Source of the DNA: an uncultured Heliobacteriaceae bacterium | GTDB taxonomy: Bacteria > Acidobacteriota > Blastocatellia > RBC074 | Direction: 5' to 3' | Assembly: GCA_964468345.1 (NCBI GenBank) | Contig: CAYXVZ010000012.1 | Location: 10,122-74,121, forward strand | Length of the DNA stretch: 64,000 nt | Shown: positions 52,515 through 53,410 of the stretch, one piece after another | How positions within the stretch are numbered: the stretch's first letter is position 1 | Layout of the letters: each line of letters opens with the position of its first letter | Position numbers and translations under genes: made by a program | Notes under the pieces: generated by a model | What the model saw: the letters and a program-made list of their open reading frames with translations, nothing else | Told to the model about the DNA's origin: nothing | The model's database searches: none

Positions 52515-52749
52515 TGCAGAAGGGGCGAGAGGTGAGGGGCGAGGGGCGAGCATTTTCGCCATCAGATCTCACGCTCGCCACGTTGCAGGGAAGAACAAGT
52601 TGATTGCTTTGCCGGGATCATCCCCCAAGCGCCGCGCGAACCACTCTTCGCGCGGCGTTCTTGTTTCTTGACGCAACCTGAGAGCGTCCACTATCATCAA
52701 TTGCGTTTTAACCGAAGGCCCCTTAGCTCAACGGTTAGAGCAGCGGACT

Positions 52750-53368
52750 CAATGTTTTCTTGATCTACGTGCTGAAGTCAGGATTATGAATCTCCGCATG
52801 GCAATTTAGGCAGAGCAAAAGGCACTTTTGGGACTCGGCGAATAGCCGCTCCCAGGGAATGTTTGAGCAATGTCTTAGGTCAATTTGAAATGACTTTGTT
52901 GATGGATCGATATGGTGAAAAGCCAGAGCTGCTTGGTTCCGCTTATAGCCGCATCGCTCACAACATCCTCCTTTCGACACAATGAGCTTGAGTCGTCGTT
53001 CACGACCACGCTCTTGCTGGGAGATGTAATTCTGGTGCTTGTTATTTGTGAATGTGTTTTTGCACTTGGTGGAACAGAATTTATCTTGTTTTCCTTTCAG
53101 GAGCGCATCACAAATTTGACAAGTCTTTACCATATGATCACGAAAAAAAAATGGGTTGCGTTCAGGTCATTGAAAGATGGCCTTTTCGTAGAATCTGTCA
53201 AATTCGGGGAAGCCTACATCGTGAAAACGACATGGTAATCCCGAGCCAAGCCTCGTTGCATCCGAGGAAGGTGTAGAGACTAGACGGCAGACACGTAAAG
53301 TGAAGAGATAGTCCAGACCACAAACGTCGATGTCAGTATCGGCGAGCGGCGAAAGCCGTAGCGGCAAG
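52750..53368 (+). mobile_element. group I intron (619 nt, IC3-like) related to the Azoarcus tRNA-Ile(CAU) intron
   Basis: The 3' core contains GAGCCAAGC ... AAGGTGTAGAGACTAGACGGCA. This is identical over 22 nt to the conserved P7/P3 region of the Azoarcus intron, and cyanobacterial tRNA-Leu introns carry GGUGCAGAGACUCGACGG. The 5' core has CCCAGGGAATG. Terminal G at 53368. Confidence 0.7.
52765..53133 (-). CDS. HNH-family (homing) endonuclease encoded inside the tRNA intron on the opposite strand
   Basis: CQICDALL ... CCERCG ... AFHHIDP ... N ... LCLNCHAEIH is a complete HNH motif with two CxxC knuckles. Its C-terminus is antisense to the 5' region of the intron. Confidence 0.6.
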   Translation of the reverse strand: MVKTCQICDALLKGKQDKFCSTKCKNTFTNNKHQNYISQQERGRERRLKLIVSKGGCCERCGYKRNQAALAFHHIDPSTKSFQIDLRHCSNIPWERLFAESQKCLLLCLNCHAEIHNPDFST

Positions 53369-53410
53369 CATAATCCGTTGGTTGTAGGTTCGAATCCTAC
53401 AGGGGCCATA

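Follow-up and report, generated by a model that had tools for sequence, protein, structure and literature searches.

A group I intron with an antisense HNH endonuclease gene in the tRNA-Ile2(CAU) gene of an acidobacterium: a probable composite mobile element

By what means is an endonuclease gene expressed when it lies antisense to a tRNA precursor, and how would this bear on a tRNA that is essential? This question is raised by a split tRNA(CAU) gene on contig CAYXVZ010000012.1 of an uncultured bacterium, in a stretch of 64,000 nucleotides (nt) that was analysed as a whole and is called the window here. An earlier note on the window had described the gene as interrupted by an Azoarcus-like group I intron that carries an open reading frame (ORF) for an HNH endonuclease on the opposite strand. 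Our analysis indicates that the insertion is probably a composite mobile element, made up of a group I ribozyme and an antisense homing HNH gene and inserted into the tRNA-Ile2(CAU) gene on the chromosome of a soil acidobacterium of the Pyrinomonadaceae type. The anatomy of the element and the selection acting on it are well supported, while homing is what we infer from the comparison of loci.

The locus was compared with homologous loci obtained from a scan of one genome per species, which yielded 72 related loci (L001-L072). Nearly all of these lie in Pyrinomonadaceae or other Blastocatellia (Acidobacteriota); the exceptions come from a Rhodothermales chromosome (L023), an Armatimonadota contig (L042), two metagenome-assembled genomes (MAGs) of Gammaproteobacteria (L061, L068) and a bacterium without classification (L069). 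Of the 72 loci, 69 share both the tRNA and the manner of its splitting, with a 5' exon ending in ...ACT, a terminal intron G and a 3' exon starting with CATAAT, and the comparative counts on the intron given below refer to these 69 loci. In the window, ARAGORN with intron detection called a tRNA(cat) that runs precisely from 52717 to 53408 and whose intron, 619 nt long, lies at position 34, in agreement with the split gene described before, and plain ARAGORN, run without intron mode, found no tRNA anywhere in the 64 kb. The parts of the element are arranged as follows.

52717-52749, + strand: 5' exon of tRNA-Ile2(CAU), tRNA positions 1-33, U33 last (ARAGORN, locus comparison)
52750-53368, + strand: group I intron, 619 nt, between U33 and C34, last base omega-G at 53368 (Rfam, ARAGORN, alignment)
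52765-53133, - strand: HNH endonuclease gene, 122 amino acids, with N-terminal zinc-ribbon-like CxxC...CxxxC and C-terminal HNH domain (ORF, PHROG, homologues)
53369-53408, + strand: 3' exon of tRNA-Ile2, anticodon C34-A35-U36 first (ARAGORN, locus comparison, E. coli match)

When joined, the two exons gave a canonical cloverleaf with anticodon CAU in ARAGORN, and a canonical tRNA(CAU) was obtained from all 49 spliced sequences that were tested. Aligned along all of its 73 nt, the spliced window tRNA has 85-86% identity with E. coli genes annotated as tRNA-Ile. It has a G1-C72 pair and an anticodon stem GCGGA/UCCGU that is devoid of the run of three G-C pairs at the stem base, and therefore it is not an initiator. 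Orthologous genes in two complete Pyrinomonadaceae genomes were assigned to Ile2(CAT) by a survey from 2026 (PMC13011429, Table S5). Based on the likeness to E. coli tRNA-Ile, the non-initiator features and the assignment of these orthologues, the window tRNA is treated here as tRNA-Ile2. In tRNA-Ile2, C34 is converted to lysidine by TilS, whereby AUA is read.

The 5' exon ends in ...GGACT in all homologous loci except L042, where the end is CACT. The window intron starts with CA, a copy of the first two bases of the 3' exon, which leaves the junction ambiguous by sequence. In about 12 of the 69 loci the first intron base is T and not C; these introns remove the ambiguity and fix the insertion between U33 and C34. 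Both U33 and the terminal G were found in 69/69 loci, so that the proposed start after U33 and end in G held throughout. The repetition of exon bases at the intron start also misled ARAGORN in intron mode, which called a wrong anticodon in about 28 of the 69 loci (Leu caa/taa/cag, Pro cgg/tgg, Ser tga). Default tRNA finders thus miss or miscall the gene, and genomes of this group wrongly seem to be devoid of tRNA-Ile2.

A search with group I models, which the earlier note had proposed, placed a match to Rfam Intron_gpI (RF00028) at 53148-53331 on the + strand, with 55 bits at a gathering score of 50 (E 3e-11). Intron_gpI was the sole Rfam family to reach its gathering score within the window; the match covers the 3' third of the intron, and relatives scored 51.6-97.8 bits. 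The two motifs quoted previously from the 3' core are present, GAGCCAAGC at 53243-53251 and AAGGTGTAGAGACTAGACGGCA at 53268-53289. The 69 loci were aligned over the stretch that begins with the guide sequence and ends at the 3' splice site, and a group I structure of 52 pairs was drawn by hand, comprising P2, P3, P4, P5, P5a, P6, P6a, P7 (as a pseudoknot), P8, a P9.0-like helix and P9b. Standard pairs occupy 96.2% of the cells, compared with 33-40% when the 3' partners were slid by 1-3 columns. Double-sided changes were detected in 31 of the 52 pairs, and none of 500 shuffles reached any of five measures. The core of P3-P9, including the P3/P7 pseudoknot, accordingly folds with the backing of compensatory changes, as the earlier note had called for, and the intron RNA is a conserved, selected group I core. 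Its helices in the window are listed here.

53157-53190, + strand: P2 hairpin, 53157-53160 with 53187-53190, longer in most relatives (alignment)
53194-53199, + strand: 5' strand of P3, partner 53286-53291, 100% paired, 5/6 pairs with double changes
53204-53271, + strand: P4-P6 domain (alignment structure)
53204-53209/53239-53244, + strand: P4 (alignment structure)
53213-53214/53234-53235, + strand: P5 (alignment structure)
53219-53222/53227-53230, + strand: P5a with GAAA loop (alignment structure)
53246-53247/53270-53271, + strand: P6 (alignment structure)
53251-53255/53263-53267, + strand: P6a (alignment structure)
53276-53282, + strand: 5' strand of P7, partner 53309-53314, pseudoknot with P3; last pair UA/AU/GC/CG, 100% paired
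53286-53302, + strand: 3' strand of P3 (53286-53291) and P8 hairpin (53292-53294/53300-53302) (alignment structure)
53309-53314, + strand: 3' strand of P7, with J8/7 AAGAGA just before it (Rfam, alignment structure)
53317-53365, + strand: P9.0-like helix, 53317-53321/53361-53365, enclosing the P9 hairpin and P9b (alignment structure)
53327-53331/53338-53342, + strand: P9 hairpin (alignment structure)
53346-53350/53355-53359, + strand: P9b with invariant GAAA loop 53351-53354 (alignment structure)

P7 is the expected guanosine-binding site. Variation in the other helices includes a P2 pair (columns 11/73) that occurs as AU, UA, GC, GU and CG, and a change of CC to UU in the P9.0-like/P9 region of L008 that is offset by GG to AA. 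The first three pairs of P2 are invariant, and their bases UGC could instead lengthen P1 onto the anticodon stem. Many members have a P5 receptor motif of the type CCUAAG...UAUGG, together with the invariant GAAA loop in P9b. Orthologous introns devoid of an ORF were classed as IC3 (PMC13011429, Table S5), and by this class the window ribozyme would be of the IC3 type as well.

Where the HNH gene sits relative to this core was deduced from two distances. The stop codon of the ORF lies 12-17 nt from the 5' splice site in the 69 loci, and the heptamer GGGTTGC (53153-53159), which is invariant in 69/69 loci, lies 14-19 nt beyond the start codon when read in the direction of the intron. By these positions the ORF fills the loop of P1, about 400 nt long, and is antisense to a peripheral loop. 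The earlier note had its C-terminus antisense to the 5' catalytic region and overlapping the core; this part had to be given up, as the ORF lies wholly between the 5' splice site and the guide, and the invariant guide position and the start of the Rfam match at 53148 rule out an overlap with the catalytic core. The elements of P1 are the following.

52747-52751, + strand: 5' strand of P1, exon A31-C32-U33 plus intron C+1 and A+2, pairing with 53152-53156, U33 opposite G53154
53152-53159, + strand: internal guide sequence region, U53152-G-G-G-U53156 pairing with exon ACU and intron CA (69/69 invariance, predicted fold)
52755-52765, + strand: 5' arm of the P1-extension stem, pairing with 53136-53146
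53136-53146, + strand: 3' arm of the P1-extension stem, pairing with 52755-52765

In addition, an AUG at 53151-53153 is able to pair with the CAU of the 3' exon (P10). The two arms of the P1-extension stem covary: its duplex had a mean energy of -10.3 kcal/mol for native arms, as opposed to -5.8 for cross-locus and -5.6 for shuffled combinations (69 loci; p about 1e-25). When the ORF was swapped for a tetraloop, the window sequence folded as P1 plus an 11-bp extension hairpin, with which the HNH ORF shares at most one base. A local P1 formed through GGUCU about 12 nt past the splice site, as seen in L001, was rejected, as the motif is unconserved elsewhere (AGUCU, GCCU, ACUCU, AUCU); GGUCU belongs to the P1-extension stem. 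In many loci (L012, L016, L020, L023, L025 and others) the first codons of the ORF, ATGGAAAA, are complementary to its last codons, TTTTCCACTTAG. This complementarity was seen by eye and in the outer pairs of duplex predictions, between intron bases of about 15-22 and those just 5' of the guide, and it would extend the stem closing the P1 loop into the coding sequence. RNA structure may therefore constrain the termini of the protein (ME... and ...FST).

The ORF runs from ATG to stop and contains C58xxC61, H73H74, N110, C108xxC111H112 and H116, which makes it the complete HNH frame on the opposite strand that had been proposed. It matched PHROG 2255, 3106 and 35854, all annotated as HNH endonuclease, with E 3e-22 to 4e-15; a sequence search of the PDB with the HNH protein gave sub-threshold or spurious matches only. 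Among 26 aligned sequences C58, H73, N110 and C111 are invariant, C61, H74, C108, H112 and H116 are conserved in at least 90%, and the N-terminal zinc-ribbon-like motif is likewise invariant or nearly so. The AlphaFold2 (AF2) model built from these sequences reached a predicted local distance difference test score (pLDDT) of 93.5 and shows a strand-strand-helix arrangement at residues 70-116. The conservation of the ORF, which the earlier note had wanted to see in homologues, was evident: the protein collection holds 95 of them, most exactly 122 amino acids long and 60-75% identical, and an intact ORF (at least 115 amino acids) is present in 53 of the 69 introns, with exactly 122 amino acids in 49. 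The median ratio of nonsynonymous to synonymous substitution rates (dN/dS) was 0.14 (73 pairs with dS 0.05-1). Most pairs are synonymously saturated, with a median proportion of synonymous differences (pS) of 0.82 and of nonsynonymous differences (pN) of 0.22, and variation was highest at third codon positions (0.42 vs 0.18 at first and 0.14 at second positions). The HNH ORF is a protein-coding gene under purifying selection.

Several observations bear on the mobility of the element. An intron-less allele was detected in at least 120 metagenome contigs with a 49-nt pattern spanning the junction. One of these contigs, L107, allowed the comparison with an intron-less allele of a close relative: it is the orthologous locus, with an uninterrupted tRNA gene that is flanked downstream by a beta-CASP metallo-beta-lactamase gene 83% identical over 463 amino acids and upstream by a small ORF with 68% identity. 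The same intron with an antisense HNH gene occupies the same tRNA position in Rhodothermales (L023) and Armatimonadota (L042), where the exons are different. Across loci, HNH identity was correlated with ribozyme identity (Spearman 0.64) and hardly with exon identity (0.10), although the tRNA exons are short, which gives the weak exon correlation limited weight. In L031 and L036 the HNH proteins are 95% identical at an exon identity of 81%, while in L044 and L050 the exons are 97% and the HNH proteins 56% identical. Decayed ORFs were found in 16 of the 69 introns, of which 14 are interrupted and two have large deletions (L070, 362 nt; L071, 383 nt). The published ORF-less introns (GCA_016700075.1, GCA_016700175.1; PMC13011429, Table S5) keep both ends of the ORF, cctaagtg/cctacgtg and catatgg/catacgg, about 20 nt apart, so that the loss of the ORF looks like a clean internal deletion. 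Taken together, the empty L107 allele, the occurrence in other phyla, the divergence uncoupled from the exons and the disrupted, deleted and ORF-less copies form the pattern that a homing gene would leave through cycles of invasion, decay and loss.

Relatives of the HNH protein also occur outside introns. Fifty-eight were found in viral contigs, with about 40-60% identity, where they stand free in tRNA gene arrays, most of them on the strand opposite to the tRNA genes. The HNH gene and a tRNA(CAU) gene abut or overlap by 0-44 nt at their 3' ends in 15 of the 24 best viral loci. No group I intron was detected near the viral relatives (0/20 loci with an Rfam match); introns that the intron mode of ARAGORN had suggested at phage HNH loci were discarded, as none of the 20 had such a match. 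More distant HNH relatives likewise lie in tRNA arrays. In the Piscirickettsiaceae MAG L061, a free-standing homologue of 136 amino acids, 58% identical to the window HNH, is divergent from a tRNA-Ile2(CAU) gene, with its start codon 68 nt upstream of it (reverse-complement coordinates 1483-2273). This tRNA-Ile2 gene carries an ORF-less group I intron of 235 nt after U36, which we take to be the Azoarcus-type site. In L069 and in a Patescibacteria genome (PMC13011429), a tRNA-Asn 35/36 group I intron carries in its 5' part an HNH homologue in sense orientation, which is 36% identical to the window HNH (E 4e-19). By the locations of the viral, L061, L069 and distant relatives, the HNH clade is generally tied to tRNA genes, chiefly tRNA(CAU).

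Some details of these loci are recorded here for completeness. The viral loci span L199-L222, with the relevant genes around locus position 2500-2950. Other viral neighbours are tRNA-Gly in L203 and L205, tRNA-Ile(UAU) in L223 and a tRNA on the same strand in L209-L212. L068 resembles L061, with no intact HNH ORF seen. In the phage tRNA array of L199, an Rfam match to transfer-messenger RNA (tmRNA) at 3317-3398 on the minus strand (51.3 bits, gathering score 47) compresses a model of 374 positions into 82 nt; it probably marks a tRNA-like element rather than a true tmRNA.

From this anatomy a course of events can be proposed. The pre-tRNA would probably be made from a promoter-like site just upstream of the gene. 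A31-C32-U33 and the first two intron bases pair with UGGGU some 400 nt downstream to form P1, whose giant loop of 400 nt is closed by the 11-bp extension stem, with P2-P9 folding downstream of the guide. Membership in the group I family suggests that a guanosine would then attack after U33 and that the exons would be ligated at omega-G 53368, giving the predicted junction ...GGACU-CAUAAUCC. Splicing would thereby restore the anticodon loop CU-CAU-AA, and only afterwards could C34 be modified to lysidine. The HNH protein would be made from a separate antisense transcript and would cut or nick intron-less tRNA-Ile2 genes near the anticodon, where repair would copy in both the intron and the gene. 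Occupied alleles would be immune, as the intron splits the target.

Upstream of the tRNA gene one feature could serve such transcription.

52668-52697, + strand: promoter-like TTGACG-18 nt-TATCAT, 20 nt upstream of the tRNA (consensus match only)

A terminator-like hairpin (52628-52659) precedes it, and a similar promoter-like motif lies upstream of the intron-less orthologue L107. On the other side, a 42-nt inverted repeat (53420-53461/53527-53568, 93% complementary, with a second pair nested) separates the 3' end of the tRNA gene from the stop codon of a convergent beta-CASP/metallo-beta-lactamase gene (53588-54979, minus strand) and is probably a bidirectional terminator. At the same place L107 has a long hairpin of unrelated sequence. 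The surroundings are those of an ordinary chromosome and not of a prophage, with genes for a peptidase M28, an outer-membrane beta-barrel protein and the beta-CASP ribonuclease-type protein. Synteny of the window neighbours gave no matches within the 72 genome loci, whose flanks are only 1.5 kb each.

Besides the shortness of the exons, a number of points weigh against a functional homing element. No sigma-70-like promoter was found on the minus strand within the window, nor was one conserved on the antisense strand across the 53 loci with an intact ORF; an antisense TTGACA across P3/J3-4 was considered as the HNH promoter and rejected for want of a usable -10 partner. In only 13 of 53 loci, the window not among them, does a Shine-Dalgarno-like motif stand before the ATG, and an impression by eye of a conserved GGAGG ribosome-binding site in some loci was dropped on this count. 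Read-through from the downstream gene into the HNH gene is unlikely because of the 42-bp hairpin between that gene and the tRNA. As to the protein, the Pfam HNH models PF21368 and PF01844 score under their cut-offs, and the top Foldseek matches in the PDB (Cap5, T4 endonuclease VII, the Cas9 HNH domain and Gme HNH), though all HNH nucleases, are weak (E at least 0.14). Both strands of P1 are invariant in the 69 loci, so that the P1 pairing is one by sequence, on which covariation is no test. Finally, most loci come from MAGs, where assembly errors could explain some of the disrupted ORFs, and short contigs such as L042 can be placed taxonomically only with uncertainty.

The same findings were weighed under other explanations. 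The HNH gene might be a selfish passenger that moves alone, aims at a site within or close to the tRNA gene and inserts into the neutral P1 loop of a resident, vertically inherited intron, with no homing of the intron as a whole. This would suit the coexistence of ORF-less and ORF-bearing versions of the same intron in one bacterial family, the free-standing relatives beside tRNA genes in phages and L061, and the sharply set slot of the ORF, at 12-17 nt from one end of the loop and 14-19 nt from the other. We nevertheless consider a lone passenger unlikely: HNH and ribozyme diverge in a correlated manner (rho 0.64), each of them uncoupled from the exons, the ORF termini kept in ORF-less copies argue for loss and not for a never-occupied state, and the whole unit is present in other phyla.

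Less likely still is a domesticated HNH protein, kept for a benefit to the host or the intron, for instance as a maturase that aids splicing or in some other nucleic-acid transaction, and no longer homing. This would suit the strong purifying selection and the intact gene found in 53 of the 69 species-level genomes, a large fraction for a homing gene that has become fixed; the N-terminal nucleic-acid-binding zinc ribbon is retained alongside the catalytic residues. ORF-less and frameshifted introns, however, persist in related genomes, so that the ribozyme can do without the protein; moreover, an antisense-encoded protein is uncoupled from the pre-tRNA, the distribution is patchy and extends across phyla, and no HNH protein is known to us to act as maturase for a group I intron. 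The view of the ORF as a chance or decayed frame, and of the extra 400 nt as an expanded peripheral RNA loop, can practically be dismissed. The Pfam scores under the cut-offs and the failure to find a clear promoter or ribosome-binding site would fit such a frame, but it is refuted by the PHROG HNH match (E 3e-22), the 95 homologues of mostly 122 amino acids and the dN/dS of 0.14 at saturated synonymous sites, and it also has the confident AF2 model and the free-standing phage homologues against it. The composite mobile element is therefore the explanation that we prefer.

As to its origin, it is plausible that the composite element arose when a resident intron captured a free-standing, tRNA(CAU)-linked phage HNH gene. 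A wider and more speculative proposal, which we put forward tentatively, is that one HNH clade, which has specialised in tRNA genes and chiefly in tRNA(CAU), preserves every stage in the assembly of a mobile intron, and that the antisense form could allow mutual regulation of HNH and tRNA-Ile2. The stages would be a free-standing gene antisense beside an intron-less phage tRNA(CAU), a free-standing gene beside an intron-containing tRNA-Ile2 (L061), and capture in the P1 loop; captured forms are antisense in Acidobacteriota and sense in the tRNA-Asn intron. If this were true, the HNH mRNA and the pre-tRNA would be complementary to each other, and HNH expression and tRNA-Ile2 maturation, and with it AUA decoding, could cross-regulate. 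At least 53 species-level genomes in which the gene is intact, the decayed, deleted and empty alleles and the phage relatives provide a natural series for how an intron and a homing gene join, persist and decay.

Among known systems, the Azoarcus intron had been named as a likeness. This applies to the host tRNA (Ile2) and, by the IC3 class of the orthologues, to the subgroup, and it fails for the insertion site, which is 33/34 here. The Azoarcus tRNA-Ile intron is an ORF-less insertion of about 205 nt that follows U36 (36/37). Beyond tRNA and subgroup, it shares with the window intron a very short P1 directly before P2, a P5 receptor of the CCUAAG...UAUGG type and a GAAA loop in the P9 region; the window intron differs in its 33/34 site and in the 400 nt in its P1 loop. 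In collaborative homing, a free-standing endonuclease acts with an ORF-less intron, as for F-CphI and psbA of cyanophage S-PM2. The layout of L061 and the phage relatives standing free beside tRNA(CAU) resemble this arrangement, whereas the window HNH gene lies inside its intron.

The 2026 mSystems survey of 4,934 complete genomes lists 333 group I introns in tRNA genes, of which 12 carry endonuclease genes (PMC13011429), in keeping with the claim that such cargo is rare in bacterial tRNA introns. All 12 are in other tRNAs and other phyla, none in tRNA-Ile2 and none in Acidobacteriota. The survey does contain the ORF-less form of the window intron in two Pyrinomonadaceae, with 244 nt in GCA_016700075.1 and 243 nt in GCA_016700175.1 (Table S5). 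These introns are direct relatives of the window intron, with the same family, tRNA, 33/34 site and ribozyme, including the GGGTTGC guide, the P3 sequence GTAGAATCTGT and P7 with GAGACTT...AAAGTCC, and differ in that the HNH gene is missing except for its two ends (cctaagtg ... catatgg). No endonuclease-bearing or antisense version of the Ile2 33/34 intron is described there (PMC13011429).

The anticodon loops of bacterial tRNAs are classic places for group I introns. Site 33/34 is a known group I intron site in cyanobacterial tRNA-fMet (PMC13011429). The intron of Synechocystis PCC 6803 tRNA-fMet with I-Ssp6803I resembles the window intron in having a CAU tRNA, the 33/34 site and an endonuclease ORF in P1 (PMC13011429, PMC3073962), but the enzyme is of the PD-(D/E)XK type, its ORF reads in the sense direction with a 61-nt overlap with P1/P2, and the host is a cyanobacterial initiator tRNA. 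A homologous HNH gene in the 5' part of the intron is found in the tRNA-Asn(GUU) 35/36 introns of Patescibacteria (PMC13011429) and in L069, which differ in the sense orientation, the IA subgroup, the tRNA and the site. An antisense endonuclease gene within a group I intron is known from I-DirII in a nuclear rDNA intron of Didymium iridis, where it is expressed from its own promoter (PMC3073962). That system belongs to a eukaryotic nucleus, with a Pol II promoter, a spliceosomal intron and a poly(A) tail, another enzyme family and an rRNA host gene. For bacteria, none was found in the limited literature searched, which is no proof of absence. If the tentative proposal of mutual regulation holds, the window element would be a bacterial counterpart of antisense I-DirII. 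The ORF-less intron was already catalogued in 2026, and within the literature searched the form with an antisense HNH gene is a new variant of it.

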